From a virus (taxonomy: Duplodnaviria; Heunggongvirae; Uroviricota; Caudoviricetes): a stretch of 29,078 nucleotides of DNA. Location of the stretch: positions 93,514-122,591 of IMG/VR virus record IMGVR_UViG_3300042879_005260. The stretch is one strand, 5' to 3'. The position numbers and the translations under genes were made by a program. The notes below the pieces were generated by a model. That model made no database searches, had not been told where the DNA came from, and saw only the letters and a program-made list of their open reading frames with translations. This document shows, one piece after another, positions 3,583 through 22,053 of the stretch. Each line of letters starts with the position of its first letter. Position 1 is the first letter of the stretch.

Positions 3583-3629
3583 TTTTTTTTCTCTTTTTGT
3601 AATATTTATATATTGATAAACAATATTTT

Positions 3630-7137: not shown

Positions 7138-7839
7138 ATGGAAAAAATGGAAAACTTTAATAGTGTATGTTATGTAGCACGTATTAATGAAATCAAACCA
7201 ATACCAGGTGCTGACAACATTGAACAAGCAGTTGTTGGTGGGTGGAATGCTATCATACAAAAAGGACAATATGCTGAAGGTGGGTTGGTAGTTGTTGCTA
7301 CTACTGATGCTGTTATCCCTCAAGAACTTTCAGATGCAATAAATGTCACTAACTACTTGCGTAAAGGTCAAAGAGTGCGTACTGTTAAGTTGAGAGGAGT
7401 TTATTCTGAGTGTTTAATCATGCCTTTATCACTACTCGTTGGTAGATCTAAGGTTATTAAAACCACAAAGGAAGGTGATGACATGATGGAAAATCTTGGT
7501 GTTTACAAGTACGAACCACCAATTAAACAAATAACATTATCTTCAGGTAAAAGAATTCGTTTTACTGAAAATGAGGCATTTAGAGTTTATTATAAGTTTC
7601 CAAATGTTAAAAATGTACCTGGTATTTTTAATGAAGAAGATAATGTACAAATCACTCGTAAAATACACGGTACCAACGCCAGATTTGGCATTGTTAAAAA
7701 AGTAAAATTAACATACTTAGATAATGTTAAACTATTTTTAAATCACAAATTTGGGTTAGGTGGTGACAAATGGAAATGGTGTGAATACGAATTTTATATT
7801 GGTAGTCATAATGTTGTTAAAGATATTCAATCTTTGTGA
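7138..7839 (+). CDS. RNA ligase (Rnl2/DRB0094-like), N-terminal half
   Basis: N-terminal OB/tRNA-binding-like segment (ARINEIKPIPGADNIE) and nucleotidyltransferase motif I (RKIHGTNARF). Ends soon after GSHNVVK. Confidence 0.8.
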   Translation: MEKMENFNSVCYVARINEIKPIPGADNIEQAVVGGWNAIIQKGQYAEGGLVVVATTDAVIPQELSDAINVTNYLRKGQRVRTVKLRGVYSECLIMPLSLLVGRSKVIKTTKEGDDMMENLGVYKYEPPIKQITLSSGKRIRFTENEAFRVYYKFPNVKNVPGIFNEEDNVQITRKIHGTNARFGIVKKVKLTYLDNVKLFLNHKFGLGGDKWKWCEYEFYIGSHNVVKDIQSL

Positions 7840-7853
7840 TATTTATTATATTA

Positions 7854-7943
7854 TAGGTTGTACGAGAACCTAAATAAATAAGATATTAGAGCCCCTATTG
7901 GGACATAATTACTCGTACTAATTGTGTTTCTTTGGGGGATTCT
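7854..7943 (+). ncRNA. Structured leader with two hairpins whose loops are complementary (kissing loop)
   Basis: Stem TAGGTT/AACCTA with loop GTACGAG (7860-7866). Stem ACATAATTA/TAATTGTGT with loop CTCGTAC (7912-7918). An outer AGAGCCCC/GGGGGATTCT pairing ends next to the HNH start. Confidence 0.55.
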
Positions 7944-7948
7944 TTTTT

Positions 7949-8668
7949 ATGGATTACAATAGAATATACAAACAACTGATTAGTAAAGCTAAAAGTGAGA
8001 AAAGAGTTAAAAATAACGGAATTTATTATGAATCACACCACATCATCCCAAAATGTTTAGGTGGTGATGGCAAGACTACACAATGGAGAACACATAATAA
8101 TATAGTTCTTTTAACAGCAAAAGAACATTTTATTGCTCACCTTTTATTATGTGAAATTTATCCTGAAAATAAAAAATTAATATATGCATTATGGTATATG
8201 ATAAATGGTTCAAATAATGGCCCAAATACTGGTTCAAGAGAGCTTAATGTGTCATCAAGAACTTATGAAAGAGTTAGACAAAAACATTCACAAGTAGTGT
8301 CTAAAACACATAAAGGTATAATTAGAAGTCTTGAATTTAAAAATAAATTATCTATATCTAGAAAAGGTGTTGCAAGTCCTTTAAAAGGAAAAAAGAGACC
8401 CAATTTATCAAAATCAAAATTAGGGAAACCAAGACCTGAATTAAAAGGGAAAAAACAATCGTTAACACATATTATAAATAGAACAAAATCAAAAAGTAAC
8501 CCAATAATTCAATGTTCCTTGGATGGTGAAGTTATAAAAGAATGGAATTCACAAATAGAGGTTGCAAAAAATTTTAATATACTACCATCAACATTAAGTA
8601 GATGTATCAAAGGTAGTCTTACTAAATCTTGTAAAGGGTTTGTATGGAAAAAAAAGAAAAAATATTAG
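7949..8668 (+). CDS. HNH homing endonuclease (T4 Mob-like HNH, NUMOD-like repeats, C-terminal NUMOD1-type HTH)
   Basis: HHIIPKCLGG...NIVLLTAKEHFIAHLLL at the N-terminus; IIQCSLDGEVIKEWNS...GFVWK at the C-terminus. ATG at 7949. Confidence 0.85.
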   Translation: MDYNRIYKQLISKAKSEKRVKNNGIYYESHHIIPKCLGGDGKTTQWRTHNNIVLLTAKEHFIAHLLLCEIYPENKKLIYALWYMINGSNNGPNTGSRELNVSSRTYERVRQKHSQVVSKTHKGIIRSLEFKNKLSISRKGVASPLKGKKRPNLSKSKLGKPRPELKGKKQSLTHIINRTKSKSNPIIQCSLDGEVIKEWNSQIEVAKNFNILPSTLSRCIKGSLTKSCKGFVWKKKKKY

Positions 8669-8730
8669 ATATTTAAAAATTATTTTTATATATTTACACA
8701 TGTATTCAAAAACAAAATTGTATTTAAAAT

Positions 8731-9249
8731 ATGAAAAAAATATTAAGCAAATTCTTCAAGAAAAAAGAAAAAAAACATTATTACCCAACAGATGTCTGGT
8801 CAGAAGTCACTGATAAATACAAGTTAAAAGAAAAACTTTGGCATTATGTTAAGGTAAGAGCGAGCGTTGATAAAATAGAGGCAGGTATTGTAATATACGG
8901 AGAGATTTATGGTCCTGGCATTCAACAGAATTATGATTACGGATTAAAAGAGTTAGAATTTGCTGTGTTTGATATAACTTATAATAACAAGTATGATAGT
9001 GTTATTCACACTGAGTATGTTGTTAAAAATGTTTTAAGATTACCTCACGTACCTATTTTATATATCGGTCCTTGGTCTCAAAAAGTACAAGACAAACATG
9101 TATTCAACAATATGATTGAAGGAACTAAAGTACCTCATGAAGGGATTGTGATTAAGCATGTAAGTGGTGAAAGACAAAAAGTGGCAAAAGTGATCAATCC
9201 TGATTACTTAATAGCAAGTGAAAAACATGATTATGGTGATTCCCATTAA
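8731..9249 (+). CDS. RNA ligase (Rnl2/DRB0094-like), C-terminal half
   Basis: Contains YGEIYGPGIQ, FAVFDI, HEGIVIK and KVAKVINPDY (motifs III-V). It has its own ATG and a basic N-terminal extension. Confidence 0.8.
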   Translation: MKKILSKFFKKKEKKHYYPTDVWSEVTDKYKLKEKLWHYVKVRASVDKIEAGIVIYGEIYGPGIQQNYDYGLKELEFAVFDITYNNKYDSVIHTEYVVKNVLRLPHVPILYIGPWSQKVQDKHVFNNMIEGTKVPHEGIVIKHVSGERQKVAKVINPDYLIASEKHDYGDSH

Positions 9250-9305
9250 TTTTTTTGTAAAATTAAAAAATTGTAGTATCTTTGTTCTCACAAAAATTAA
9301 AAACT

Positions 9306-9575
9306 ATGTTTATAATAAATTACGTATTTGTCGCAATACTGGACGGTAGCCCAATTGCGGCTGCTCACACAAAAGCCGATATCGAAGAAATGTTGGATGA
9401 ATATAATGGTGTTAAAACTGGACATGCTGAACTTGTAAAATATGAACCTTATAACAGTAAGTACCCAAGTATAAACGACCTTGAAGGTGTTTACACTTAT
9501 AAAGATAAAGACGGTGAGTATGAAATAAAAGTTTACGGTACTGAATATAAAAGAGAAAAACAAATTAATGATTGA
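9306..9575 (+). CDS. Hypothetical protein at the left edge of the cassette array
   Basis: ATG at 9306 after a Bacteroidota-type promoter. The 3' end ATTGAACCTAAC is cassette-like, but no matching 5' arm was found. Confidence 0.7.
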   Translation: MFIINYVFVAILDGSPIAAAHTKADIEEMLDEYNGVKTGHAELVKYEPYNSKYPSINDLEGVYTYKDKDGEYEIKVYGTEYKREKQIND

Positions 9576-9668
9576 ACCTAACGGTTGGGTGTATATGTAG
9601 TTTTTTTTGTAGAAAGTTTCAAATTAATTTTTTTGTTTGATAAAAATGTTGTATATTTGTTGTTATAA
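9576..9668. repeat. attC-like site S1 (hybrid, poorly paired arms)
   Basis: ACCTAAC-GGTTGGGTGTATATGTAG ... TATATTTGTT-GTTATAA. The left and right arms come from different families. Confidence 0.6.
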
Positions 9669-9778
9669 ATATGTGATGGTGAAATAGCGACACAGCAACT
9701 GCCACGTGATTTGTGGAACAACAGTAAGACACGTAGTTGGTTAAATACCGAGCATCCTTCACCATCATTATTTATAAC
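9662..9778 (+). ncRNA. ORF-less cassette body; structured, possibly tRNA-derived
   Basis: About 21-nt terminal inverted repeat (GTTATAAATATGTGATGGTGAA / TTCACCATCATTATTTATAAC), internal stems, no ORF. Confidence 0.4.
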
Positions 9779-9900
9779 GGTTGGGTGTATATGTAGTGTG
9801 AGATTAGAACCACTACACTTGATTTAACCACAAATGTTTATTAGAAATAGAAATTTGAATATATCACTTAACCTCACATTACATATACACCTTGTTATGT
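9772..9900. repeat. attC-like site S2
   Basis: Arms GGTGTATATGTAGTGTGAG / CTCACATTACATATACACC; close homolog of S25. Confidence 0.85.
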
Positions 9901-9969
9901 GTAGTAATTTTGTGGGTGGGATTTGGGCTAAAATTTAATTTCTGAATATTTATATATAAAGATAAAACT

Positions 9970-10452
9970 ATGAGTAAAGAAATGAGAAACCATATAGATA
10001 AGTTTAAGAATTTTTTGTTGAAGGAACAAGATGAAAATTCAAATTTTGAGGATTTTGAAGGTGTTAATGAACATACTTTTATTCTTTACTTTGATGTAAG
10101 TGCTGGAAACATACCACAATCTGAATATGATGATGTTCTTCATCGTGCTTTGATTGAAGAATTTGATGGGTTTGGAAACACTTTTTACTTAAAAGATTAC
10201 TTTACTTCTACTAATCCAAGTTTTGAAGTTAAAATAATTAAAAACGAGTGGATTGGTAATAAAAACCACGTTTTTGATTATATAAAAACTACAATAAAGG
10301 TGGAGATACCAAAATATGAAGATTTTACTATTGAAGATGTTGAAGAAACTATCAAAAATAAGTTAGGTAGTTTTTATCATCGTTGGAATATATCATACGA
10401 TGAAACAGAAAAAGTTCATATATGGTTGAAGAAATTAGAAAGGGTCGGGTAA
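9970..10452 (+). CDS. Cassette gene with MSKEMR...LLKE leader
   Basis: 160 aa. Body termini GTTATGTGTAGTAATTTT / AAAATTATTACACATAAC. ATATTTATA at 9946. Confidence 0.8.
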   Translation: MSKEMRNHIDKFKNFLLKEQDENSNFEDFEGVNEHTFILYFDVSAGNIPQSEYDDVLHRALIEEFDGFGNTFYLKDYFTSTNPSFEVKIIKNEWIGNKNHVFDYIKTTIKVEIPKYEDFTIEDVEETIKNKLGSFYHRWNISYDETEKVHIWLKKLERVG

Positions 10453-10463
10453 AAAATTATTAC

Positions 10464-10548
10464 ACATAACGGTTACAAATATGAGAAGTAAATTTTATCT
10501 ATAAAAATTAGATAAATCAAAATTTATTTCTTATATTTGTTGTTATAT
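10464..10548. repeat. attC-like site S3
   Basis: CAAATATGAGAAGTAAATTTT / AAAATTTATTTCTTATATTTG; same family as S11 and S21. Confidence 0.85.
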
Positions 10549-10589
10549 TTAGTTTTGATTTTGTTTTACCTTATAAAAAAATAAATAAT

Positions 10590-10916
10590 ATGGAAAATAT
10601 AGTAAGTCACACTGTTCATTATCTTAAAAGAGTTGGTGAACCTAAAACAACAGATTTTAATTCTGAAATGAAAGAACAGAAATTAGAAATTGAAGCAAGA
10701 ATATCAATAAAACAGTCTTTAGAATTTTGTTCTTTTTTAAGCAGTATTGCAAATAACAAAGGGAGAAATGATGGAACTATTAACGGTAAAACTTTATCAA
10801 TAATTTCCAACTGGTATGATGTAAATGGTGGTTCAATTACAATAAACCATATCTATGGAAAAAGTGTAAGCAATAAAACAAGTTACTACACAATAACTTG
10901 GAGTAAAGAATTATAG
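10590..10916 (+). CDS. Cassette gene, hypothetical
   Basis: 108-aa ORF inside a cassette body. Confidence 0.7.
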   Translation: MENIVSHTVHYLKRVGEPKTTDFNSEMKEQKLEIEARISIKQSLEFCSFLSSIANNKGRNDGTINGKTLSIISNWYDVNGGSITINHIYGKSVSNKTSYYTITWSKEL

Positions 10917-10932
10917 TCAAATAATACGATAA

Positions 10933-11118
10933 ATGAAAAATATAGTATCAACATACGATAAGAGTAAAAATACAAGGGGAGGCACTCGGCAAGGGTCGGG
11001 TGCTAAACCTAAATACAATGAGCAAACTAAAACGGTTGCTTTTCGCTGTCCGCTGTCAAAAGTTGATGAACTGAAATTTATTGTCAAGTCTAAACTTTCG
11101 GAGTGGTCGGTAAAATAG
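10933..11118 (+). CDS. Small basic protein (RGGTRQGSGAKPK), possibly DNA-binding or RHH-like
   Basis: 61 aa; a Gly/Arg-rich N-terminus followed by a TVAFRCP strand and a helix. Confidence 0.55.
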   Translation: MKNIVSTYDKSKNTRGGTRQGSGAKPKYNEQTKTVAFRCPLSKVDELKFIVKSKLSEWSVK

Positions 11119-11119
11119 C

Positions 11120-11249
11120 AGCTAACGTCTGATGATAAACAATCGTTTTAATGTTGTTTATCGGTTGGGTGTATGAGAAGGTTTGCTTGTAGAAACTTTC
11201 AAATTACCACAACTATTGATAGCAAACTTTCTTATACACCTTGTTATAC
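11120..11249. repeat. attC-like site S4 (fusion of a truncated 54-bp-family site with an S14/S19-family site)
   Basis: ...ATGTTGTTTATC is joined directly to GGTTGGGTGTATGAGAAGG...; the ATTTGTT...AA stretch between them is missing. Confidence 0.75.
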
Positions 11250-11368
11250 ACAGTACGGTTTAATTAGGTAGAATGTTGATACGAAGAACGAATAAAAACT
11301 TTTTAAAAAAGTGAGGTGGGGAAATTTAATTTCTGAATATTTCTATATAAGATAAACTATTTATAAAT

Positions 11369-11938
11369 ATGAAACAAGATAGAAGAATACATAATTTCAT
11401 TAAAACTACTATAAGAGAGTTTGTAAATGAACAACCTAATAATAATGATATGGAAAATTTATTGAAAAAAGCGTTAGATGATGCTTTTATAAAACTTGAA
11501 AATCAAGTACCACAAACAAAAAAGAAAACTGAAACTATCAGTATTCAAGATGTAAAACCATCACAATTATTATCATTTATGAAATCAAATGATATACCAA
11601 ATGATGCTTATTTTACTGGGACAGATAATGGATATGATGGTTGGAATGATATTGTATTGGCTTGGGAAGTCGATGTACCAACCACAGAAAAGGAAAAGTT
11701 GGAATATAAAAATAGACGTTTCCACGATATTGCTTTTAAAAGTGTATATGATTTATTGACACCAAATGGTTATAAAAGAACTTCAGGACAGGATAGAGGT
11801 AGAATAAGTTATAGAAAATCAAGTTATGCTTCACATATTATTATGTTTGATAATAAAACGGTATATGAAATGTATATGGATAAAGATTTCAACTCGTTAT
11901 TAGAATATTATTCTATGTATTTTAAAAAAGAAGGGTAG
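11369..11938 (+). CDS. Cassette gene with IKTTIREFVNE leader
   Basis: 189 aa. The 5' UTR, leader and 3' UTR are shared with 23660..23950. Confidence 0.8.
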   Translation: MKQDRRIHNFIKTTIREFVNEQPNNNDMENLLKKALDDAFIKLENQVPQTKKKTETISIQDVKPSQLLSFMKSNDIPNDAYFTGTDNGYDGWNDIVLAWEVDVPTTEKEKLEYKNRRFHDIAFKSVYDLLTPNGYKRTSGQDRGRISYRKSSYASHIIMFDNKTVYEMYMDKDFNSLLEYYSMYFKKEG

Positions 11939-11996
11939 GGAAATTTTAAAAAGTTTTTCTCACTAAACTTAATTTGAAACGATAATGTAGTATTGT

Positions 11997-12127
11997 GTAT
12001 AACGGCTGACGATATGTGAAGGTGGGGATTATAAGTGCTAAACCCAGACTTACCAACAAAAGTAAATTAGATGCACAAATCTATGGATTTGGAACAAGCC
12101 CCCACTTTCATATATTGTTTGTTATAG
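11997..12127. repeat. attC-like site S5
   Basis: GATATGTGAAGGTGGGG / CCCCCACTTTCATATATT arms between GTATAAC and GTTATAG. Confidence 0.8.
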
Positions 12128-12147
12128 GGCGTTTAAATCAATAAATT

Positions 12148-12363
12148 ATGAGTGATGCAATGAGTGAAATTTACAAAGCTGAAAGAGAATATGAAAGAGA
12201 ATATTCTAAATGGAAGGAACAATTAGGTAAATCAGAAAAATTAGCGGATGAATACCAAAATATTTCTGATGAAATAGATGAAACTAATAGAGAATATAAA
12301 AGAAAATTGAACGATTTAATATCTAAATTAGAATTTGTTAAAGAGCAAATAAATGCCCTATAA
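12148..12363 (+). CDS. Cassette gene, short coiled-coil protein
   Basis: 71 aa. The stop TAA lies inside the CTATAAC core. Confidence 0.75.
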   Translation: MSDAMSEIYKAEREYEREYSKWKEQLGKSEKLADEYQNISDEIDETNREYKRKLNDLISKLEFVKEQINAL

Positions 12364-12411
12364 CGTCCGATGATAAACAATCGTTTTAATGTTGTTTATC
12401 ATTTGTTATAA
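12358..12411. repeat. attC-like site S6 (54-bp minimal family)
   Basis: ATGATAAACAA-TCGTTTTAATG-TTGTTTATCAT. Confidence 0.85.
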
Positions 12412-12448
12412 GTATGTAAAATTTAATCATAGTAAAAACTTAAATAGA

Positions 12449-12709
12449 ATGGAAATAAAAGATTTAAACGAAGTCGTTAAATACTTCAAGGAATATACAA
12501 GCAGAGAAGATGGTAAATACTTCTTTCACAAAGAAAATGACAATTTTAAGATTATCATATCAACGGACAATGAATTATATCAATTAAATACTGACCACGA
12601 ACCTTGGGGTATTGAAATTGATACAATAGATAATCTTAAAATTAGGTTTAAATCTTTTACTGGTGAAAATATAGAAGACATTACAAATAGATTTTGGGAT
12701 GAAGATTAA
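12449..12709 (+). CDS. Cassette gene, hypothetical
   Basis: Start moved to the ATG at 12449 (MEIKDL). Body termini GTTATAAGTA / TACTTATAAC. Confidence 0.7.
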   Translation: MEIKDLNEVVKYFKEYTSREDGKYFFHKENDNFKIIISTDNELYQLNTDHEPWGIEIDTIDNLKIRFKSFTGENIEDITNRFWDED

Positions 12710-12719
12710 ATTTTATTAC

Positions 12720-12852
12720 TTATAACGTTTTGCAGATAGGCGATGTGGCGGATTTTGAAACACAAAATTTGAAAATATGATACGAAGATTATTTGAAAAA
12801 CTAAAGCTGATTAAACCACGTCAGCCGCACTTGCCACAAACCAATGTTAGCG
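12720..12852. repeat. attC-like site S7 (loop carries a start codon)
   Basis: GGCGATGTGGCGG / CCGCACTTGCC arms; ATG at 12777 inside the site. Confidence 0.75.
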
Positions 12853-13055
12853 GTTCGGTTGTTTTAGTTAGTGATATTTTGTCTGAACAGCAAATAAATA
12901 GGGCAATTTTGTACTATACTAAACACAAAGAATACGTTGACGATATGGTTAAATTAACGAAAAATGCTTTTGAACCATCACAGATAGAGGACAAAAATGA
13001 CCCTATGTTATGGAAAGCTGAATATTGGAAGTGGTTTTTAACAACTGACCGCTAA
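12777..13055 (+). CDS. Cassette gene starting inside the hairpin (PHLPQTN-V-SGS junction)
   Basis: The GTT core at 12846 is read in frame as Val; the stop lies in the CGCTAAC core. Confidence 0.7.
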   Translation: MIRRLFEKLKLIKPRQPHLPQTNVSGSVVLVSDILSEQQINRAILYYTKHKEYVDDMVKLTKNAFEPSQIEDKNDPMLWKAEYWKWFLTTDR

Positions 13056-13143
13056 CGGTTGCAAATATATGTAGGTTTTTATTTGGAAATCTCAAATATT
13101 TGTACTACCTTTGTAAAAAACTTACATATATTTGTTGTTATAA
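13050..13143. repeat. attC-like site S8 with a Bacteroidota-type promoter in its loop
   Basis: CAAATATATGTAGG / CTTACATATATTTG arms. TTTG at 13082, N20, TACCTTTG at 13106. Confidence 0.85.
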
Positions 13144-13155
13144 AACGTTTTTATT

Positions 13156-13455
13156 ATGGAAAATTTAGAATTTCAAATTAAAAAATTAGGGACACTTAAT
13201 TATTCGAGATTAGAATCTTTGAGTATTTTAAGGAAAGAAATAAACTCTTATGACTATAATTATACTATGTCAGAAGTGAAAGAATTGTTAGATTCTATCT
13301 TGAATAATAACTTTGAAGAACGTTTTAATTTGGAATTCAAGGTGTGTTTCGATAAAATATTTAATTGTAATGAATATACTGAATATGATAATTATCCAAC
13401 TGAACAAAATTTTCCAGAAGATTGGATTCCACCAATTGGGCAAAATGTTTTATAA
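13156..13455 (+). CDS. Cassette gene, hypothetical
   Basis: 99 aa; the stop lies in the TTATAAC core. Confidence 0.75.
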   Translation: MENLEFQIKKLGTLNYSRLESLSILRKEINSYDYNYTMSEVKELLDSILNNNFEERFNLEFKVCFDKIFNCNEYTEYDNYPTEQNFPEDWIPPIGQNVL

Positions 13456-13541
13456 CGGTTGGGTATATGTGAAGTACCTTACCACAAACTTTAAAATTTA
13501 GTAGAAACTTTATGAGGTATTTCACATATACCTTGTTATAA
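13450..13541. repeat. attC-like site S9
   Basis: GGTATATGTGAAGTACCT / AGGTATTTCACATATACC. Confidence 0.85.
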
Positions 13542-13552
13542 ACTGTAAAATT

Positions 13553-13720
13553 ATGACTGTACAAGATTTGATTGAAACACTATCCAAAATGGATAAAGAT
13601 AAGATTGTTATAATAACTGAACCAAGTGGAATAGGTTGGACTAACATTGGTAAAGTAGTAGAAGGTGAATGTGATGTTAAAATAATAGAAGATGATAATG
13701 GACTATTCCACGAGTCATAA
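13553..13720 (+). CDS. Cassette gene, 55 aa (absent from the ORF track)
   Basis: Translated by hand as MTVQDLIETLSKMDKDKIVIITEPSGIGW...LFHES*. It fills the body 13535-13736. Confidence 0.65.
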   Translation: MTVQDLIETLSKMDKDKIVIITEPSGIGWTNIGKVVEGECDVKIIEDDNGLFHES

Positions 13721-13729
13721 TTTTATTGT

Positions 13730-13861
13730 TTATAACGGTTCACAGATTGCTTTAGTTGCGAATTTAAAAACGAAAAATTATGATAACACAGAGAGAATAT
13801 TTAGAAGCACAAAAGATTGTTGATGCGTACCACTCGCAATTGAAGCAATCTGTTGTTAGCA
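13730..13861. repeat. attC-like site S10 (loop carries a start codon)
   Basis: CAGATTGCTTTAGTTGCGA / TCGCAATTGAAGCAATCTG. Confidence 0.85.
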
Positions 13862-14031
13862 CCAGTGATTTATCGCTTAATCAAAAAGTAAAACGTAATT
13901 ATCCTGAAAGTTGGGATTATTGGGTTACTGAAATACAAGGCGAAGATGTGCTAATACGAACTACCGAAAGTGAAGATGACCCCAAGTATGATGATTTTTG
14001 GGTGAATATCGCTGAACTTCGCCTTGTTTAA
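13780..14031 (+). CDS. Cassette gene starting inside the hairpin (LKQSV-V-STS junction)
   Basis: The GTT core at 13855 is in frame. Confidence 0.7.
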   Translation: MITQREYLEAQKIVDAYHSQLKQSVVSTSDLSLNQKVKRNYPESWDYWVTEIQGEDVLIRTTESEDDPKYDDFWVNIAELRLV

Positions 14032-14038
14032 TCATTGG

Positions 14039-14123
14039 TGCTAACGTTTGCAAATATGAGAAGTAAATTTTACCTCTGAAAATTTTTTATTTCAAAATTT
14101 ATTTCTCATATTTGTTGTTATAT
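14039..14123. repeat. attC-like site S11
   Basis: CAAATATGAGAAGTAAATTTT / AAAATTTATTTCTCATATTTG. Confidence 0.85.
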
Positions 14124-14146
14124 TTAGTATCAAAAATTATTAACAC

Positions 14147-14386
14147 ATGGAAAATATAAAAAAATCATTAGAAGTATTAGCTAAGGTTGCTAATCATAGA
14201 GCAGTAGTAAATGACTTTGCTCGTAGTAAGTATATTGAAAGATTTGGTAATAAAGAAAAACCGATTGGAACATATCACGCTTATGATGGATATGATATAA
14301 TATCTGAAACAAAACTGAAAGTGAAATATACTTACGGTGCTGGTGATATGGACTTCAATGATTTTTTTATTATAGAATTTGAATAA
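14147..14386 (+). CDS. Cassette gene next to the attI-like site
   Basis: 79 aa. Body termini GTTATATTTAGTATCAAAAATT / AATTTTTGATATTGAATATAAC. Confidence 0.75.
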   Translation: MENIKKSLEVLAKVANHRAVVNDFARSKYIERFGNKEKPIGTYHAYDGYDIISETKLKVKYTYGAGDMDFNDFFIIEFE

Positions 14387-14399
14387 TTTTTGATATTGA

Positions 14400-14433
14400 A
14401 TATAACTAGATTATATATGTAATAACCCTTAAC
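14400..14433 (-). other. Candidate attI-like site
   Basis: The core ATATAAC is not followed by a hairpin. The minus strand shows three GTT heptamers (GTTAAGG 14427-33, GTTATTA 14420-26, GTTATAT 14400-06), ending 9 nt before the recombinase ATG. Confidence 0.5.
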
Positions 14434-14442
14434 TTATTATAA

Positions 14443-15249
14443 ATGAACGCAAAAGGAGTTTCAACTTTAAAGATTTGTGAGCAAAAGCTTAATTATCTAA
14501 ACTATTCAATTCGAACAAGGAATAACTATCTTTCACACATAGGTAAATTTTTAAAATCGCAAGAAAAATCTGCCTTACATTTGAATTCACAAGACTTCCA
14601 GTCCTATTTAGATAATTATCAATTCACCTCAGTTTCACAACAAAATCAAGTAATAAACGCAATCAGATTCCTCTACAAATTTGGTCTTAATAAAAAATAT
14701 GATAAAGTCAGTTTCAAAAGACCTAAATCAGAAAAGAAACTACCAAAAGTAGTTGATGGGGAATTTATTAAGACTCAACTATCTAAGATTGAAAATCTCA
14801 AACATAAAGCTATACTCACCTTAACCTTTTCAGTCGGACTCAGAGTATCTGAACTAGTTAGTCTCAAAATCGAAGATGTTGATTCAAAGAGAATGCTTAT
14901 CCATATCAAAAATGGAAAAGGTAGAAAAGATAGAATTGTTCCACTTTCTGAAACTGTATTAACTCTATTAAGAGAATACTTCAAACGACATAGGCCAAAG
15001 GAATATTTGTTTAATGGTCAAAACTCAACACAGTATTCAATAGGTTCCTGTCAGAAGCTATATAAAAAATATATTGATCCTACTGGACACATTCACACTC
15101 TGAGGCATTCGTGTTTTACAAACTTATTGGAGAATGGAACAGATTTAAGGATAATACAAAAAATAGCAGGCCATTCTAATGTAAAAACCACAGAGATTTA
15201 TACACATGTAAGTACTCAGTTATTAAACAAAATTTTACCACCAATTTAA
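14443..15249 (+). CDS. Tyrosine recombinase (XerD/integron-integrase-like) without the IntI-specific insertion
   Basis: N-terminal SAM-like domain. Catalytic residues R (GLRVSE), K (KGRKDR), HxxR (HTLRHS), H (AGHS) and Y (TTEIYTH). Only a short RHRPKEYLF segment follows KDRIVPL. Confidence 0.92.
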   Translation: MNAKGVSTLKICEQKLNYLNYSIRTRNNYLSHIGKFLKSQEKSALHLNSQDFQSYLDNYQFTSVSQQNQVINAIRFLYKFGLNKKYDKVSFKRPKSEKKLPKVVDGEFIKTQLSKIENLKHKAILTLTFSVGLRVSELVSLKIEDVDSKRMLIHIKNGKGRKDRIVPLSETVLTLLREYFKRHRPKEYLFNGQNSTQYSIGSCQKLYKKYIDPTGHIHTLRHSCFTNLLENGTDLRIIQKIAGHSNVKTTEIYTHVSTQLLNKILPPI

Positions 15250-15268
15250 TTTTTACTATTTTTGTTAT

Positions 15269-15805
15269 ATGAAATCAAACTGTTGTAACCAAAAAGTGGT
15301 AAAATATACCAACGATGATAATTTATTTTATTGCCCCAAATGCTTATGTCTTGTTGCTTTTAAAAAGAAAAGTTATAACATAGTAGTTACCATTATCTTA
15401 TTTATCTTTTTTTCTTTTATTTCACTGGAAGTATTAGCTCCAAAAAATTTAAATAAAAAATTAAAAGGAATTGTTAATACCGATCTTGAATTAAACGATT
15501 CTTGTTTAATGGCTTACATGAATGAAATTGATATTTTATTTCCTGAATTGGTTTTACAACAAATACACTGGGAGTCTGCTCATTTTAAATCAAAAATATG
15601 TCTAGAAAATCATAATTTGTTGGGTATTAAATATATTAAACAAAAAGAATCTATCGGTGAAAATCGTGGTCATGCAGTTTTTCCAACCTATAAATCTTGT
15701 TTACGTGATTACAAACGTTTACAACAGTATTATATCGGCAATCTAGTTGGGAAGTATGCGGAAGATCCAACTTACGGTAAAAAATTATTTAACTATGGAA
15801 AATAA
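15269..15805 (+). CDS. Putative GH73/lysozyme-fold muramidase with N-terminal Zn-ribbon and TM segment
   Basis: CC...CPKC, hydrophobic IVVTIILFIFFSFISL, QQIHWESAHF...NHNLLGIK and YAEDPTY. Confidence 0.55.
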   Translation: MKSNCCNQKVVKYTNDDNLFYCPKCLCLVAFKKKSYNIVVTIILFIFFSFISLEVLAPKNLNKKLKGIVNTDLELNDSCLMAYMNEIDILFPELVLQQIHWESAHFKSKICLENHNLLGIKYIKQKESIGENRGHAVFPTYKSCLRDYKRLQQYYIGNLVGKYAEDPTYGKKLFNYGK

Positions 15806-16067
15806 AATAAACGAAAACGACAAAAAAAATCAGTATGATTCGTATTGTCCTGTTTGTTCAGGATGTGGTGAAGAAGGCTGTTGTCCGCCTTTAGTATGTA
15901 AACAGTCACCTGATGGGCATTATTGTCAGACCTACCTTGACCATTTAAAATTTGTTTATTTAATGTATAATTCAGTTTACGAATTAATACCCAAGGACGA
16001 AGAAACGCAAAAAAAGTTAGATGAGATTTGGAAAAAAAATTACGATTTAATTTATATAACAAAATAA
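15795..16067 (+). CDS. Cys-rich hypothetical protein
   Basis: CPVCSGCGEEGCCPPLVC; ATG at 15795. Confidence 0.7.
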   Translation: MENKINENDKKNQYDSYCPVCSGCGEEGCCPPLVCKQSPDGHYCQTYLDHLKFVYLMYNSVYELIPKDEETQKKLDEIWKKNYDLIYITK

Positions 16068-16083
16068 AATATTATAAAAAAAC

Positions 16084-16467
16084 ATGTCTGGAATTTTAAA
16101 AAATAAATTTGTTGTGGGTGTGGATTTTGACGGCACTTGTGTCACACACGAATACCCAAAAGTTGGTAGAGATATTGGGGCAGTTCCTATTTTAAAAGAA
16201 TTAGTTAACAGTGGGCATAAATTAACTGAAAAAGGCGTTGATACACTACAAGATGCAATTGATTGGTTTCAAAAAAACGAAATACCATTATGGGGAATTA
16301 ATGAAAATCCAGAACAAAAAAGTTGGACCGATGGCAATAAACAATACGCGAATCTCTATATTGATGACGCCGCTTTGGGTTGTCCCTTAATTTATAATGA
16401 AATTGAAAGGCCTTTTGTTGATTGGATAGAAATACAAAAATTTTTAAAAGAATCTAATATTATTTAA
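16084..16467 (+). CDS. HAD-superfamily hydrolase-like protein
   Basis: VGVDFDGTCV (DxD motif I) and LYIDDAALGCP. Confidence 0.75.
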   Translation: MSGILKNKFVVGVDFDGTCVTHEYPKVGRDIGAVPILKELVNSGHKLTEKGVDTLQDAIDWFQKNEIPLWGINENPEQKSWTDGNKQYANLYIDDAALGCPLIYNEIERPFVDWIEIQKFLKESNII

Positions 16468-16486
16468 TAGTAAGAATCGAATATTT

Positions 16487-17197
16487 ATGGTTATGAATTT
16501 ATCTGAAAAAATAACCATAGTTATACCGTGTAAAAATGAAGGTTTTACAATAAAAAAAAGTTTAGATTTATTAAATTTACAGAATAATATAGAAAATGTT
16601 TTAGTTGTAGTAAGTGATTTTTCTGATGATTTTACTAAAAATTTATTATCAGAAAGAAAATCAGATAAATTTAACTTAAAATTAACATTGGGTGGATTAC
16701 CTTCTATTGCTAGAAATAAAGGCGCGAAATATTGTAAAACACCTTATATTTTGTTTTTGGATGCTGATATGTTTATTTTAGATGAAAATTTTTTATCTGA
16801 AGTTATATCAGAAATGGAGAATAAAGATTTTGATCTTTTAACTTGTAAGTTTAATACAAAAAATGGTAAATATAATAATTTGTATAACTCTTTTTTTGTT
16901 TTTCAAAAATTAACAAAAAGGTTTTCACCTTTTGCTTTAGGTGGATTTATGTTATTCAAAACAACTAAATTTAAAGAGCTAGGCGGTTTTGATGAAAATA
17001 TAAAAGTCGCCGAAGATTATCAACTATCCAGAAAAATAAAACCAAAAAAATTTGGTTTGTATAAAAAAAATATATTTACCGAAACTAGAAGATTCGATAA
17101 AAAAGGTTTGTTTTACATGTTAAAATTATTTATTAATTCTTTTTTACATAGAAATAATAAAAAATATTTCGTTGATGATCATTGTTATTGGATATGA
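16487..17197 (+). CDS. Glycosyltransferase family 2
   Basis: IVIPCKNE, ARNKGA, FLDAD (DxD), GGFDE and EDY. Confidence 0.85.
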   Translation: MVMNLSEKITIVIPCKNEGFTIKKSLDLLNLQNNIENVLVVVSDFSDDFTKNLLSERKSDKFNLKLTLGGLPSIARNKGAKYCKTPYILFLDADMFILDENFLSEVISEMENKDFDLLTCKFNTKNGKYNNLYNSFFVFQKLTKRFSPFALGGFMLFKTTKFKELGGFDENIKVAEDYQLSRKIKPKKFGLYKKNIFTETRRFDKKGLFYMLKLFINSFLHRNNKKYFVDDHCYWI

Positions 17198-17907
17198 AAT
17201 GGAAAACTATTATAATGAGCGACCTTCATTTAGGCGCAAGACAATCACAAACCGATAAAATTTTAAAGTTTTTAAAAGAAAATACTGCGGAAACTTTAAT
17301 TTTAAATGGTGATATAATAGATGGTTGGGCCTTAAAAAAAGGCGGTTCTTGGAAATCTGAATCTACTAAGATAGTTAGGAAGTTTATGAAACTTTCTGAA
17401 AAAAAAACTAAAGTTATTTGGATAAGGGGTAACCATGATGATTTTTTAAAACCTTTTGTGCCTTTTAAATTAAACAATATTGAGATTGTTAGGAAATATG
17501 TTTATACTGGTTTAGACGGTAGAACCTATAATTGTTTTCATGGTGACGTTTTAGATTTTGTAATCATGGAAGTTAGATGGCTAGCAATTATTGGTGGGTA
17601 TTCCTATGATTTTGTTATTCGTTTAAATACTTTTTATAATAAAATAAGAAAATTATTTAATTTACCATATCATTCTTTGGCTAACACAATAAAACAAAGT
17701 GTTAAAGGTGTTATAAATTTTGTTTCCGATTTTGAGGAAAATGCAAAAGCTTTAACAAAACAAAAAGGTTATGATGTCGCAGTTTGTGGGCATATACATC
17801 AACCGAAATTAGAAAATGATTACATGAATTCTGGTGATTTTTGTGAAAATTCAACTTGTCTGGTAGAAGATTACAATGGTAATTGGCAAATAATAAATGT
17901 TATATGA
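17194..17907 (+). CDS. Calcineurin-like metallophosphoesterase, PlcP/LpxH-like
   Basis: SDLHLG, NGDIIDGW, RGNHDD, HGD and CGHIH. The ATG at 17194 overlaps the GT2 stop. Confidence 0.85.
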   Translation: MKWKTIIMSDLHLGARQSQTDKILKFLKENTAETLILNGDIIDGWALKKGGSWKSESTKIVRKFMKLSEKKTKVIWIRGNHDDFLKPFVPFKLNNIEIVRKYVYTGLDGRTYNCFHGDVLDFVIMEVRWLAIIGGYSYDFVIRLNTFYNKIRKLFNLPYHSLANTIKQSVKGVINFVSDFEENAKALTKQKGYDVAVCGHIHQPKLENDYMNSGDFCENSTCLVEDYNGNWQIINVI

Positions 17908-17951
17908 AAGGCAAAAAATTTAAATCCGCATTAAATACAAAATTAAATATT

Positions 17952-18227
17952 ATGGGTGCAATCACAACGCCCGCGGAATTAATCCGAGAAACTTTAATTA
18001 ATTTTTTTTGGGGGTTTACCGGCAATTCGATAGTTCTTTTTATCTCCAAAGAAATGGATATTGCAATTTTAATAAATTTTATTGTTTATTATTTACTTAT
18101 TTCTTATATCGTAAATCGAGCGAAATATGAAACACGCTTAGGTAAATTTATTATCCTTCCAGGTTCAGCGGCCATTGGTGCTTTTACCGGGTATAAAGTC
18201 GCTCAATGGATTTCATATTTCATATAA
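17952..18227 (+). CDS. Small membrane protein
   Basis: Three hydrophobic segments; the start is uncertain (17904 or 17952). Confidence 0.6.
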   Translation: MGAITTPAELIRETLINFFWGFTGNSIVLFISKEMDIAILINFIVYYLLISYIVNRAKYETRLGKFIILPGSAAIGAFTGYKVAQWISYFI

Positions 18228-18286
18228 TAAATAAAAGCTTTTTTATTTCGTAAAAAAAGATTATCTTTGTTTTAAGCAAAAATAAG

Positions 18287-18991
18287 ATGAAAAAGTATAA
18301 AATCACTTTAATTAGTGATACACATAACAAACACAAACAAATAACTCAAGACTTACCTGGAGGAGATATTCTTATTCACTCTGGAGATTTTTCCAGTATG
18401 GGTTATGAGCATGAGATACGGGAGTTTTGTAAGTGGTTTAATGGTCTTCATAATTACACCCACAAAATCTTTATTGCTGGTAATCATGATTGGGGGTTTC
18501 AAGATAATCCAACTAAAGTGAAAGAGATATTAGAATTATACCCTAACATAACATACTTACAGGATGATTTTATTTATATTGGTGAAGATAGTCAGGATAT
18601 CATTAAAATTTATGGTAGTCCTTGGCAACCAAGATTTCACAATTGGGCTTTCAACGCTGACCCAGGAGAAGATATTCAACAACATTGGAATAAGATACCA
18701 AATGATACTGATATTCTTATCACGCACGGTCCTGCCTTTGGTTATTTAGACACTGTAGTTGGCAGAGGTTATGATAATCTAGGTTGCAAAGATCTTAACG
18801 ATAAGATTGCCGAAATTAAACCTAAAATTCATGTTTGCGGTCATATCCACTCTGGTCATGGCCACAAAATAAGTGCTGATGGCAGTGTACATTTTTTCAA
18901 TGCGTCAGTTCTTAGTGAAGAATATACATATAAGTATAAGCCTATTACTTTTGAGTGGAGTAAAGAAAACAACGAAATCGTTTTTATGTAA
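18287..18991 (+). CDS. Calcineurin-like metallophosphoesterase (second family)
   Basis: ISDTH, HSGD, IAGNHD, LITHGP and CGHIH. Confidence 0.85.
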   Translation: MKKYKITLISDTHNKHKQITQDLPGGDILIHSGDFSSMGYEHEIREFCKWFNGLHNYTHKIFIAGNHDWGFQDNPTKVKEILELYPNITYLQDDFIYIGEDSQDIIKIYGSPWQPRFHNWAFNADPGEDIQQHWNKIPNDTDILITHGPAFGYLDTVVGRGYDNLGCKDLNDKIAEIKPKIHVCGHIHSGHGHKISADGSVHFFNASVLSEEYTYKYKPITFEWSKENNEIVFM

Positions 18992-18997
18992 TAAAAT

Positions 18998-19028
18998 ACC
19001 ATCATTAAAAAAAATGATGGTTTTTTTT
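18998..19028 (+). terminator. Rho-independent terminator
   Basis: ACCATCATT-loop-AATGATGGT followed by a T-run, just after the stop at 18991. Confidence 0.7.
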
Positions 19029-19108
19029 GGATTTAAAAATTAATTGCATTTTTAAAAAAATAAAGATATTTATTAATTAAAAAGAATAAAATTTTTATTT
19101 TTAATAAA

Positions 19109-19402
19109 ATGGAAATAAATAAAATAAAAAGTTTAAAAATGCATAATTTTAATTTTGACCCTATGAATATTGATTTAATAACAAGACCAGGTGAAGCTTT
19201 TCTTAAATGTATGGGATTTCTTACATTAGGAACGGTAATGGAAGTTAATATTAACGACATACATCTACCACCAATTTTTATTGAGGTTGCGAGGTTCTTA
19301 GCTTATATGGGTGCGAGTGTCGCATTTTTTAAATTTATAATTAACCTTTTTAGGGGTAAAAAAGAAATTAAAGAAGATAAAAACCCAGAAGAAAAAGAAT
19401 GA
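19109..19402 (+). CDS. Small membrane protein (2 hydrophobic segments, charged C-terminus)
   Basis: 97-aa ORF with ATATTTATT upstream. The topology is holin-like but there is no other support for that call. Confidence 0.6.
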   Translation: MEINKIKSLKMHNFNFDPMNIDLITRPGEAFLKCMGFLTLGTVMEVNINDIHLPPIFIEVARFLAYMGASVAFFKFIINLFRGKKEIKEDKNPEEKE

Positions 19403-19626
19403 ATATTTTCTTATTTTTAATAATAATAATTTTAATAATTATTATTGTTATTGATTGGTTTATGTTAAGAAAATGGGAAAAACAGATTGTTAAAAATCTT
19501 AATGATATTTTTGACGGTATAAAAGCTTTTTTTATTGTTTATGTTATTGATAGAGTGTTCGGAGCTTTGGAAACAAAAGAAGAAGAGGGCACTAATGATG
19601 ATGAAAATTCTGAGGAGATAGTTTAA
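19399..19626 (+). CDS. Small membrane protein
   Basis: Hydrophobic N-terminus; ATGA overlap with the previous gene. Confidence 0.6.
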   Translation: MNIFLFLIIIILIIIIVIDWFMLRKWEKQIVKNLNDIFDGIKAFFIVYVIDRVFGALETKEEEGTNDDENSEEIV

Positions 19627-19773
19627 TTTTTTTTGTAATATAAAAAAGCGTTACAATTTGATAAGTTAGAATTATTCAATCACATATTGGGCATTTTCTA
19701 ATAAATGTTGTAATATTCATTTTTTTTACTTATATTTGTATTCGGTATCAAGAATACCTCTTATAATAAAGAT

Positions 19774-20214: not shown

Positions 20215-20228
20215 TATAATATATTTTT

Positions 20229-20602: not shown

Positions 20603-20665
20603 AAACATTTTTTTTTTGCAATGTAACAAATTTAACCTATATTTGTTACAACAAAATAAGACACA

Positions 20666-21187: not shown

Positions 21188-21188
21188 A

Positions 21189-21998: not shown

Positions 21999-22053
21999 AC
22001 TTAATGATAAATAATACTTTTAATTAAAAAAAGAATTTTTTAATAATATTTAT

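Follow-up and report, generated by a model that had tools for sequence, protein, structure and literature searches.

The window analysed here, a stretch of 29,078 nucleotides from a phage contig of 122,591 bp, appears to carry a phage-borne platform of gene cassettes that functions in the manner of an integron without being one, a reading to which, mechanism included, a probability of about three in four was assigned. Stem scans together with a listing of core sequences placed 29 hairpin sites on the + strand of the window, 11 of them at 9579-14120 (array 1) and 18 at 22716-28992 (array 2), and no sites of this type were found in the remaining 93 kb of the contig. The anatomy of the arrays, the covariation of their stems and their tight link to one recombinase clade were established by sequence comparison, and the earlier interpretation of a distinct hairpin cassette system used by a phage was supported. 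No published description of this system was found in the literature.

Hairpin sites and cassettes

The host of the cassette arrays is a large uncultured freshwater phage. Each cassette begins with a hairpin site and a short leader, continues with a small gene and closes with an 11-nt terminal arm (ATT-N5-TAA). No recognisable function was detected for the cassette genes. The bodies measured 105-757 nt, in line with the 0.1-0.75 kb given in the earlier note, and its counts of 11 sites in array 1 and 29 in the window were reproduced, all on the + strand. The sites have the form TAAC-G, 3-nt bulge, stem-loop, T-GTTA, in which TAAC-G pairs with T-GTTA and the bulge, on the 5' arm, is followed by the stem. 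The NNNNAAC/GTTNNNN hairpins described previously were recovered, but the 5-nt and 2-nt spacers ascribed to them are better read as this pairing together with the 5'-arm bulge.

Nine of the 11 sites in array 1 were good hairpins, and two, S1 and S7, were degenerate, with cores and cognate flanks kept and weak stems. S1 (9579-9665), the first site, lies directly 3' of the stop codon of the backbone ORF 9282-9575; it is a chimera whose left and right arms come from different hairpin families, its fold is weak (z -0.54), and the flank that follows it is the cognate of the one preceding S2. No ORF was found in the 113-nt body preceding S2 (9666-9774). S2 itself (9775-9897; TAAC-G, bulge, 20-bp stem, loop, T-GTTA) heads a cassette with ORF 9970-10452, and its hairpin and 5' leader are paralogous to 27511-27712, while S3 (10467-10545; 22-bp stem) heads a body with ORFs 10590-10916 and 10933-11118. 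The compound site S4 (11123-11246) joins a short hairpin that lacks the 3' core to a long one that lacks the 5' core; it folds as two hairpins (z -3.85) and heads a cassette with ORF 11369-11938, and metagenome contigs from two runs diverge just past the C (11126) of its TAAC. S5 (12000-12124; 20-bp stem) heads a cassette with ORF 12148-12363. The minimal 48-nt form of the site is represented by S6 (12361-12408), which heads a cassette with ORF 12389-12709, displays the TAACG/TGTTA stem and 3-nt bulge (z -4.88) and has near-identical copies at 25001, 25796 and 28610, the left part of S4 being another copy.

The degenerate S7 (12723-12849) folds weakly (z +0.56), and ORF 12777-13055 starts within it and contains its 3' core (GTTA). 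S8 (13053-13140; 20-bp stem; z -5.03) heads a cassette with ORF 13156-13455 and has a promoter-like TTTG-N20-TAccTTTG motif in its loop, and S9 (13453-13538; 21-bp stem) heads a cassette with ORF 13553-13720. S10 (13733-13858; 20-bp stem) is the site of ORF 13780-14031, whose start codon lies in the loop, and the 3' arm and core are coding. The last cassette of array 1, with ORF 14147-14386, is headed by S11 (14042-14120; 22-bp stem), which together with its downstream leader is paralogous to the sites at 10467 and 26179 with their leaders. Among the good hairpins, DNA folding of the three tested (S4, S6 and S8) gave z values of -3.9 to -5.0.

Array 2 (22716-28992, + strand) comprises 18 sites with their cassettes and continues until the contig stops, with no recombinase visible at its right end. 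The sites are located at 22716-22804, 23023-23070, 23453-23540, 24001-24087, 24347-24438, 24732-24818, 25001-25048, 25296-25383, 25796-25843, 26179-26258, 26562-26686, 26864-27002, 27242-27356, 27512-27634, 28004-28127, 28229-28358, 28610-28657 and 28945-28992, all on the + strand.

A fixed-geometry search detected 163 sites in 41 loci on the strand of the recombinase versus 5 on the opposite strand. Stem pairs covaried, pair 3 occurring as GC (37), AT (33), TA (18) and CG (11), and an almost invariant T at -7 was found opposite G at +7, a wobble that is possible on the site strand only. Note, however, that sense-strand polarity and G.T wobbles are equally expected of an RNA structure. A Bacteroidota-type promoter consensus was present in three hairpin loops and start codons fell inside several, and given these features the hairpins may also be active in expression. 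Hairpin families were common to several sites at 95-100% identity, and the 48-nt hairpin occurred upstream of three different flank types. Such combinations of hairpin modules with differing downstream flanks show that a further process is at work, whether homologous exchange, gene conversion or exchange at a second point.

Complementarity of cassette ends

Over 20 positions beyond GTTA, the stretch following site n was compared with the reverse-complemented stretch preceding site n+1. Consecutive pairs (n = 27) matched at a mean of 13.4/20 positions, versus 7.7/20 in 813 non-consecutive pairs, and none of 10,000 partner shuffles reached the observed level, which bears out the earlier claim that the ends of each body are complementary. 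The sole exception in array 1 was the S3 body (5/20). The complementarity was cassette-specific and extended over 15-24 nt, the two flanks of one and the same site matched at 8.1/20, and in other loci the corresponding values were 11.1/16 versus 8.15 +/- 0.19. When the site of a free cassette was rebuilt from its joined ends, the mean folding energy was -25.2 kcal/mol versus -16.3 kcal/mol in the array context, and the + strand was the more stable one in 25 of the 27 cases.

The recombinase and the insertion site

The gene at 14443-15249 (+ strand) encodes a 268-aa tyrosine recombinase that is Xer/IntI-like, on Pfam searches and PDB alignments, and that carries an N-terminal SAM_4 domain (Pfam). 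The catalytic residues R134, K159, H218, R221, H244 and Y253 are present and form invariant columns in the family alignment. The protein aligns to VchIntIA (PDB 2a3v) over residues 21-180 and 210-267; between these blocks, 29 residues stand in place of 77 in IntI4/VchIntIA, indicating that the IntI insertion is absent, as had been claimed in the earlier note. The recombinase fell under all curated IntI and Xer cut-offs of NCBIfam, scoring 151 versus a cut-off of 265 for TIGR02249 and 104 versus 435 for PRK15417.

Array 1 is ended by an attI-like insertion site (14395-14442, + strand) that abuts the recombinase start codon. Its left arm, ATTGAATATAA, is part of the last cassette, and its right half, TAGATTATATATG..., extends to the start codon. 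The last cassette ends with an unpaired TAAC (14403-14406), 36 nt 5' of the ATG at 14443, precisely where an unpaired terminal core had been described, and the exchange point at the insertion site is inferred to lie within this TAAC. About 50 viral loci have the junction TAAC/TAnnATATAT (the slash marks the junction) upstream of the recombinase gene. The insertion site and the hairpin sites have only TAAC in common, after which TAGATT in the former stands against GGTTGG in the latter; homology this short excludes homologous recombination and also counts against a classical two-strand exchange.

Cassette arrays in related phages

Recombinases at least 70% identical to that of the window were present at 31 viral loci, with 137 kb of sequence covered upstream of them and 180 kb downstream. 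Within 7 kb of these genes, 95 sites were found upstream versus none downstream, and the statistical association of the recombinase clade with such arrays, for which the earlier note had asked, is therefore strong. Many other contigs carry the hairpin motif with more than 4 kb of downstream sequence and no recombinase there.

The comparison among relatives, likewise proposed beforehand, revealed that cassette content differs and that identical cassettes occur in unrelated contigs, the moved units being bounded exactly from the TAAC of their own hairpin to the TAAC of the next site. Two otherwise unlike contigs, L005 and L043, had one unit in common that was 100% identical over 315 nt, and L002 and L031 had a common unit (97.5%) followed by a hairpin in L002 and by an insertion site in L031. 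Array-2 cassettes at 28610-28995, 24992-25384 and 27241-27519 recurred at 90-96% identity in L034, which has two units in common with the window (96% and 92%), and L019, which has one (90%). A further contig, L082, encodes a recombinase that is 93% identical and has a near-identical TAAC/TAnnATATAT insertion site and a different last cassette. In six comparisons of whole cassettes or insertions between otherwise different phages, the exchange point mapped to TAAC, at the hairpin's 5' side, so that a cassette comprises a hairpin and the gene downstream of it. Judged from these junctions, the hairpin goes with its downstream gene, opposite to the arrangement in integrons, which refines the earlier reading.

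The Freya phages, cultured phages of Polaribacter, encode a distant homologue of the recombinase (37.5% identity). The empty site of Freya_1, ...ATTGTTTACAAC followed directly at the junction by ACCCC..., lies 46 nt 5' of the recombinase gene. In Freya_10, 4.9 kb of hairpin cassettes were present exactly after the AAC of this empty site, with insertion flanks 100% and 99.8% identical to those of Freya_1, and Freya_6 has another cassette at the junction occupied in Freya_10. Genome comparison shows both that moved cassettes have exact TAAC borders and that related phages carry insertions at a fixed site. The available sequencing runs consisted of assembled contigs, and these break at the repeated hairpins.

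Proposed mechanism and alternative explanations

It is proposed that the adjacent 268-aa Xer-type recombinase carries out strand exchange inside TAAC, where the hairpin has its 5' foot. Exchange between two hairpin sites would excise or shuffle a cassette, and exchange between a hairpin site and the fixed TAAC/TAnnATATAT site upstream of the recombinase gene would insert one, so that new cassettes would accumulate beside that gene. In the free cassette, which would probably be circular, the two ends would meet and pair, folding the coding strand into a single long hairpin with a bulge, and this folded single strand would be the substrate of the recombinase. A single strand would be exchanged and replication would complete the process, by analogy with integrons and CTX-phage integration. 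The single-stranded substrate is inferred because the ends pair only when folded or circular, the wobbles are strand-biased and the overlap regions are non-homologous. Recombination itself, the recombinase as catalyst, the circular intermediate and the single-strand exchange are likewise only inferred, and neither experiments nor reads give evidence of circles, excision or recombinase activity. Also counting against this reading are the two degenerate sites, the S3 body with its unmatched ends, the hairpins that occur with differing downstream flanks, and the absence of a recombinase at the visible end of array 2 and downstream of the hairpin motif in many other contigs.

It could be that the hairpins are instead RNA-level or expression signals (terminators, processing sites or modules resembling the promoter-early stem-loops, PeSLs, of T4-type phages), that homologous recombination shuffles the cassettes and that the recombinase has another role, in dimer resolution or lysogeny. 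Every site is carried by the coding strand, the only one on which G.T wobbles are tolerated, and the loops hold the promoter consensus and start codons noted above; the 95-100% identical hairpin families could supply homology, and mini-circles have been documented for the PeSLs of T4-type phages (PMC2839356, PMC4122927). However, such an account is unlikely, given that the insertion-site junctions share no more than TAAC with the hairpin sites, that the same-nucleotide junction recurs in the roughly 50 loci and in the Freya phages, that the sites lie strictly upstream of the recombinase clade and that a local terminator or promoter needs no complementarity between two cassette ends.

A bona fide divergent integron with a true IntI and attC sites, like the reported phage-borne integrons and attC clusters (PMC9892861), would account for the integron hallmarks seen here, which are the AAC/GTT cores, the extrahelical bases within imperfect inverted repeats, the cognate ends of the cassettes and the position of the insertion site next to the integrase gene. 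This is very hard to reconcile, however, with a recombinase that is missing the IntI-specific insertion and scores far under the IntI cut-offs, with an exchange point on the opposite side of the hairpin relative to the gene and with extra bases on the other arm; moreover, the published phage cases are small IntegronFinder attC clusters tested with IntI1, not with this recombinase. MITE-like palindromic elements inserting alone into intergenic TAAC/GTTA would make the complementary ends remnants of a palindromic target, and indeed the hairpin-free junction would be a perfect palindrome (ATAAC-GTTAT) and identical hairpins are found between unrelated flanks. Such elements are scarcely credible here, since the 15-24 nt of cassette-specific complementarity join the flank after site n to the flank before site n+1, with same-site flanks matching far less well, since units of hairpin plus gene move as wholes, and since recombinase-proximal insertions bring gene-bearing units, never bare hairpins in the cases compared. 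A cassette platform moved by the adjacent recombinase remains the preferred reading.

Comparison with known systems

The platform resembles integrons (for example class 1 and the Vibrio cholerae superintegron with VchIntIA) in its polar layout, in which small genes, most of them unknown, alternate with imperfect hairpin sites that have AAC/GTT cores and extrahelical bases and whose stems are conserved in structure and not in sequence. In both, the two ends of each cassette are complementary and a fixed insertion site adjoins the tyrosine recombinase gene, with the newest cassette (in the phage, by inference) nearest. Unlike in integrons, the phage recombinase is without the IntI insertion of about 48 residues and does not pass the curated IntI models, exchange is placed at the 5' foot of the coding-strand hairpin, which precedes its gene, the bulge is of 3 nt and on the cleaved arm, and end pairing extends over 15-24 nt versus 7 in integrons. 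In addition, the recombinase gene and the cassettes point the same way, many cassettes seem to have their own promoter, and the host of the cassettes is a phage.

Integration of the CTX-phage type (IMEX elements), by XerC/XerD on a folded single strand, resembles what is proposed for the phage cassettes, in that an enzyme of the Xer type lacking the IntI insertion would act on a duplex-mimicking hairpin, with one strand exchange that is completed by replication. In the CTX system, the XerCD of the host inserts the entire genome of a filamentous phage at the chromosomal dif site, whereas here, on a mechanism that is only inferred, small cassettes would be moved by an enzyme that the phage encodes, both inside a phage genome and from one to another.

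PeSLs are similar in that, in large lytic phages, small variable genes have repeated intergenic stem-loops on their flanks. These modules have been linked to gene gain, loss and replacement via mini-circles, and their shuffling was attributed to homologous recombination between repeats (PMC2839356, PMC4122927). The words recombinase and integron are absent from PMC4122927, and in the part of that paper that was consulted no insertion site or complementary cassette ends were found for PeSLs.

Integron-type recombination sites have also been described on phage DNA as attC clusters or integron fragments, including in a flavobacterial (Polaribacter) phage (PMC9892861). The clusters concerned are small, with two or more attC sites each; they were detected by IntegronFinder, most are without an integrase, and the sites were recombined experimentally by the bacterial IntI1 (PMC9892861). 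In this they differ from the present system, in which large arrays are tied to a phage-encoded recombinase without the IntI insertion.

Setting and form of the hairpin sites

The window forms the final 29 kb of a 122,591-bp IMG/VR virus record, classed as linear and ~51% complete by CheckV, with 28% G+C. Among its backbone genes are phosphoesterases, a glucosaminidase, a glycosyltransferase and an RNA ligase that a homing endonuclease interrupts. The ligase and its interruption take up three ORFs, all on the + strand: the N-terminal part of the ligase is encoded at 7138-7839, the homing/HNH endonuclease gene follows at 7922-8668, and the C-terminal part is at 8731-9249. At 371-1421, two tandem paralogous small genes (384-791 and 823-1224) share 84% DNA identity, and partial repeats continue to 1421.

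A stem scan combined with a listing of xTAACG/TGTTA cores located 29 hairpin sites, all on the + strand, with 11 in 9579-14120 (array 1) and 18 in 22716-28992 (array 2), and with none of these sites in the other 93 kb of the contig. The usual layout is a left flank, TAAC-G, a 3-nt bulge (mostly GTT, TCT or similar), a stem-loop with a stem of 13-24 bp and a loop of 9 to ~90 nt, T-GTTA, and a right flank. Good hairpins were found at 9 of the 11 array 1 sites, and the DNA folds of the three that were tested (S4, S6 and S8) gave z values of -3.9 to -5.0; at S1 and S7 the cores and flanks are kept and folding was no better than that of shuffles. The arrays contain 22 + strand copies of ATT-N5-TAACG, where 2.1 would be expected in the entire window. 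With one fixed geometry, 163 sites were present on the recombinase strand in 41 loci versus 5 on the opposite strand. The stem pairs covary across these loci, so that structure is conserved rather than sequence; no covariance model was built, and the covariation was taken from anchored pair counts in a script. Position -7 is a T in 101 of the 103 distinct sites from the 41 loci, and position +7 is a G in 69 and an A in only 6. T(-7).G(+7) is thus a conserved wobble, and only the + strand can form it. Comparison of all Rfam families with the window gave a single sub-threshold microRNA-family match on a hairpin, and nothing more.

Site S4 (11123-11246) is compound, consisting of a short hairpin without its ...ATTTGTTA end joined directly to a long hairpin without TAAC. 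The break in the short hairpin lies on the 3' arm, five paired positions in from the core. It could be that this is the scar of an aberrant or second-strand exchange.

The ends of the cassettes were compared over the 27 consecutive pairs of sites in the window. The 20 nt after the GTTA of one site matched the reverse complement of the 20 nt before the TAAC of the next at a mean of 13.4 positions, versus 7.7 for non-consecutive pairs and 8.1 for the two flanks of the same site, and the observed complementarity was matched by 0 of 10,000 partner shuffles. The recurrent mismatch was a right-flank G opposite a left-flank T, and only one body (10546-11122) lacked matching ends. The end complementarity holds in other loci too. 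An earlier note, made from the sequence alone, had claimed 29 hairpin sites in the window, 11 of them in array 1, and complementary cassette ends; both claims are upheld. The site that a free cassette would have was rebuilt by joining the end, hairpin and start of one and the same cassette; its mean folding energy was -25.2 kcal/mol compared with -16.3 in the array context, and in 25 of 27 cases the + strand gave a stabler fold than the - strand. One body of ~110 nt (9666-9774) contains no ORF, although its ends are complementary over a long stretch; a small RNA and an emptied cassette are both possible explanations.

Three homologous loops (13082-13113, 22745-22776 and 24760-24791) carry TTTG-N20-TAccTTTG, which is the primary-sigma promoter consensus of Bacteroidota, directed into the downstream gene. 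The form TTTG-N20-TAnnTTTG was matched 7 times across the window versus 3.4 expected, and most sites have no such motif. Some loops also contain start codons. Taken together, the promoter-like motifs and the start codons suggest that cassettes probably carry their own expression signals. Some 30 cassette ORFs were compared with Pfam and PHROGs, and no family was found above threshold, nor any recognizable function.

The mobile unit, the insertion site and the inferred exchange point

Within the window, a hairpin mostly goes together with what lies downstream of it, and TAAC is where the homology begins. Two other viral loci, L005 and L043, have in common a 315-nt unit of 100% identity, although the DNA that they share totals just 760 nt of ~20 kb. 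The unit runs from the ATAAC-G of its own hairpin to the TAAC-G of the next site; beyond this point the two loci have different hairpins. The same borders were observed for two units common to locus L034 and array 2 (96% and 92% identity), despite a DNA identity of just 73% between the recombinase genes, and for one unit common to locus L019 and array 2 (90%). A unit that is internal in contig L002 is the last unit in contig L031, where TAAC is followed by TAGATTATAT... and then by the recombinase gene. In all, five shared cassettes extend from the TAAC of the upstream hairpin to the TAAC of the next site, with a differing downstream hairpin. From these exact borders it follows that a cassette comprises a hairpin and the gene downstream of it, and that the exchange point lies within TAAC, at the 5' foot of the hairpin.

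The first 114 nt of L002 repeat positions ~3485-3598 of the same 8.3-kb contig at 100% identity. The repeated segment is the 3' end of a cassette that adjoins the insertion site, and the copy at the contig start is followed by a hairpin site. A cassette that was duplicated or inserted again could account for this, as could the effect of repeats on assembly.

The insertion site of the window occupies 14395-14442 (+), with the C of its TAAC 36 nt before the ATG of the recombinase. In ~50 loci, with recombinase identities down to ~50%, the left arm varies with the cassette and ends in TAAC, and directly after it, a few tens of nt 5' of the recombinase start, comes a conserved TAnnATATAT (alternatively TAcTATATGTA). 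Locus L082, with a recombinase 93% identical and a near-identical insertion site, differs both in its last cassette and in its downstream backbone. TATATGTA occurs both in the right half of the insertion site (14407-14430, TAGATTATATATGTAAT) and, in the most frequent family of hairpins, on the 5' arm (GGTTGGGTGTATATGTAG, 9779-9800), at a similar distance from TAAC if the 3-nt bulge is discounted. In the insertion site, TATATGTA may be the second binding arm or simply a promoter.

The recombinase and its association with the arrays

The gene at 14443-15249 (+) encodes a tyrosine recombinase of 268 amino acids with Phage_int_SAM_4 and Phage_integrase domains. Residues R134, K159, H218, R221, H244 and Y253 form the catalytic set and are invariant in 14 family members. 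On alignment with VchIntIA (PDB 2a3v), residues 21-180 correspond to 18-181 and residues 210-267 to 259-316, leaving a gap of 29 residues versus 77 at the place where IntI carries its extra domain; likewise, 253 residues of the recombinase extend over 304 of IntI1. Against a cut-off of 265 bits, the integron integrase model TIGR02249 matched in two stretches with a score of 151, and PRK15417 scored 104 against 435. The curated Xer models were not passed either (XerA_Arch 184 against a cut-off of 220, XerD 156 against 330 and XerC 150 against 335). The best solved relative was XerA of Pyrococcus abyssi (4a8e), which aligned end to end (E 1.4e-37) without extra insertions. The family is very large in metagenomes, where its automatic name is XerD.

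In a small tree with a single IntI reference, E. coli XerC and XerD split off with support of 100/100. IntI1, which has a long branch, fell into a polytomy with the phage clade and bacterial homologues that was not resolved, so that sister-group relations cannot be stated. The VchIntIA alignment agrees with the earlier note in that the IntI insertion is missing, and the phylogeny proposed there against IntI and XerCD separated the recombinase cleanly from the latter only.

Using the one fixed geometry, 95 sites were found in 137 kb upstream of recombinases at least 70% identical to that of the window, versus 0 in 180 kb downstream, which provides the statistical link between recombinase clade and arrays that had been sought. 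For recombinases 60-69% identical the counts were 27 upstream and 0 downstream, for those 48-59% identical 16 and 0, and below 48% no sites of this geometry were found. In a scan of IMG/VR for the hairpin motif, 12 of 80 retrieved stretches included the recombinase, and in all 12 it lies on the same strand, downstream. Many of the 80 do not extend far enough for a judgement, and ~30 had more than 4 kb downstream without a recombinase, so that not every array seems to adjoin one. Array 2 has no recombinase within the contig.

Bacterial homologues 40-50% identical (Bacteroidota, Nitrospirota and others) had no hairpin arrays, with a TAAC|TAnTATAT-like motif kept before the gene. A chromosome contig of the cultured bacterium Mesonia aquimarina (L090) encodes at 7800-8714 a recombinase 49% identical, preceded by ...ATAAC|TACTATATATAAAA, with no hairpin array upstream of the gene. 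This may be the recombinase of an ordinary integrative element with the same type of core site.

Relatives in cultured phages and metagenomes

A nucleotide search of GenBank phages identified no close relative, and the only match to the array region was ~100 bp in a 462-kb uncultured phage. A protein search of the same phages identified distant recombinase homologues (31-40%) in Cellulophaga phage Ingeline and Polaribacter phages Freya and Leef. The ten Freya isolates are of unequal length. In Freya_1 the site is empty, reading ...ATTGTTTACAAC|ACCCCTATAAC..., 46 nt before the recombinase gene, and in Freya_10 a 4.9-kb insertion of small genes with AAC...GTT hairpins begins exactly after the AAC of Freya_1, with flanks 100% and 99.8% identical between the two. 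Freya_6 has a different cassette at the same AAC junction.

Sequencing runs that contain window sequence came from lake-water metagenomes. The public runs were compared over 9400-29078 as assembled contigs only, and most joints had sides shorter than 31 nt. Because assemblies break at the repeated hairpins and the joints are short, the contigs give no verdict on circles or excision; a loose contig end directly after TAAC at 11126 is a weak hint only. At 16215, inside the ORF at 16084-16467, 30 nt are inserted in contigs of one lake metagenome.

Proposed mechanism

Exchange at G|TT, with the hairpin 3' of its gene as in attC, is ruled out by the five shared cassettes, and the Freya_10 insertion that starts right after AAC also counts against it. 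TAAC is the sole sequence common to the insertion site and the hairpin sites, the next bases being TAGATT and GGTTGG, respectively. Homologous recombination is excluded on this ground, and a classical two-strand exchange is disfavoured since it requires identical overlap regions. Further exchanges must also be at work, since one and the same hairpin can be joined to differing right flanks. If the strand is reversed, a cassette with its hairpin first and its exchange point in TAAC has the integron layout with the genes inverted, which makes the coding strand the counterpart of the recombined 'bottom' strand of attC. This agrees with the observed + strand bias in fold stability and in the wobbles.

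One interpretation of these data is that folding would create an Xer-like site, in which the 11-nt left arm ATT-N5-TAA adjoins the exchange point. Such a site would fit stem positions 6 and 7, where the T-A and A-T pairs are invariant, and also the pairing of cassette ends only in the free cassette. A single strand would then be exchanged, with replication completing the reaction, as is inferred by analogy with integrons and CTX-phage integration. Note that single-strand exchange, cassette circles and catalysis by the recombinase are all inferences without direct evidence, the metagenome contigs being uninformative.

Meaning

The main reading, that a second kind of integron exists in which an insertion-less, Xer-type phage recombinase acts on cassettes through single-stranded hairpins folded from the coding strand, and that it is widespread in Bacteroidota phages from 44-kb siphoviruses to genomes of more than 400 kb, is held only slightly above even odds (about 0.55). 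To our knowledge, integron chemistry on folded single strands has been tied to a domain found only in IntI. If the reading is correct, that domain is not needed for recombination at hairpin sites and is not the sole route to such chemistry, and phages possess a dedicated gene-capture machine for trading accessory genes. It would also explain how large lytic Bacteroidota phages build and swap many small orphan genes, which probably include genes for host takeover and anti-defence. The phage system may resemble the ancestral state behind integrons, or be a convergent invention, and the origin of integrons would become testable. The integrase of phages Freya and Ingeline has been read as a sign of a temperate lifestyle (PMC8776804); on the main reading, contrary to this, an 'integrase' in such phages would be no evidence for one. 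The words integron, cassette and hairpin are absent from the paper describing the Freya phages (PMC8776804). With their empty and filled sites, these phages offer an immediate experimental model.

Comparison with known systems

The literature searched, which left out most subscription journals, yielded no account of arrays of hairpin cassettes linked to a phage recombinase without the insertion. Integrons and attC clusters have been described in phages (PMC9892861). The arrays differ from the PeSL modules of T4-type phages (PMC2839356, PMC4122927) in that their insertion-site junctions share only TAAC and in that the arrays are strictly linked to a recombinase clade, whereas PeSL modules are shuffled by homologous recombination between the repeats and have neither a dedicated recombinase nor a fixed insertion site. 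The recombinase resembles Xer proteins in its R-K-H-R-H-Y set and its two-domain fold without extra insertions, and is unlike them in falling below the curated XerC, XerD and XerA cut-offs.

The textbook example of site-specific cassette capture is the integron. As in integrons, imperfect inverted repeats with AAC...GTT cores lie between the phage cassettes, cassette starts are complementary to the inverse core that closes the same cassette (with longer pairing than in integrons), and the insertion site adjoins the recombinase gene as attI adjoins the integrase gene. In contrast to integrons, the phage recombinase gene is read in the same direction as the array instead of diverging from it, its product lacks the additional domain of IntI (the I2 helix region), exchange does not take place at the G|TT of the 3' core, and the hairpin precedes its gene, whereas attC follows it.
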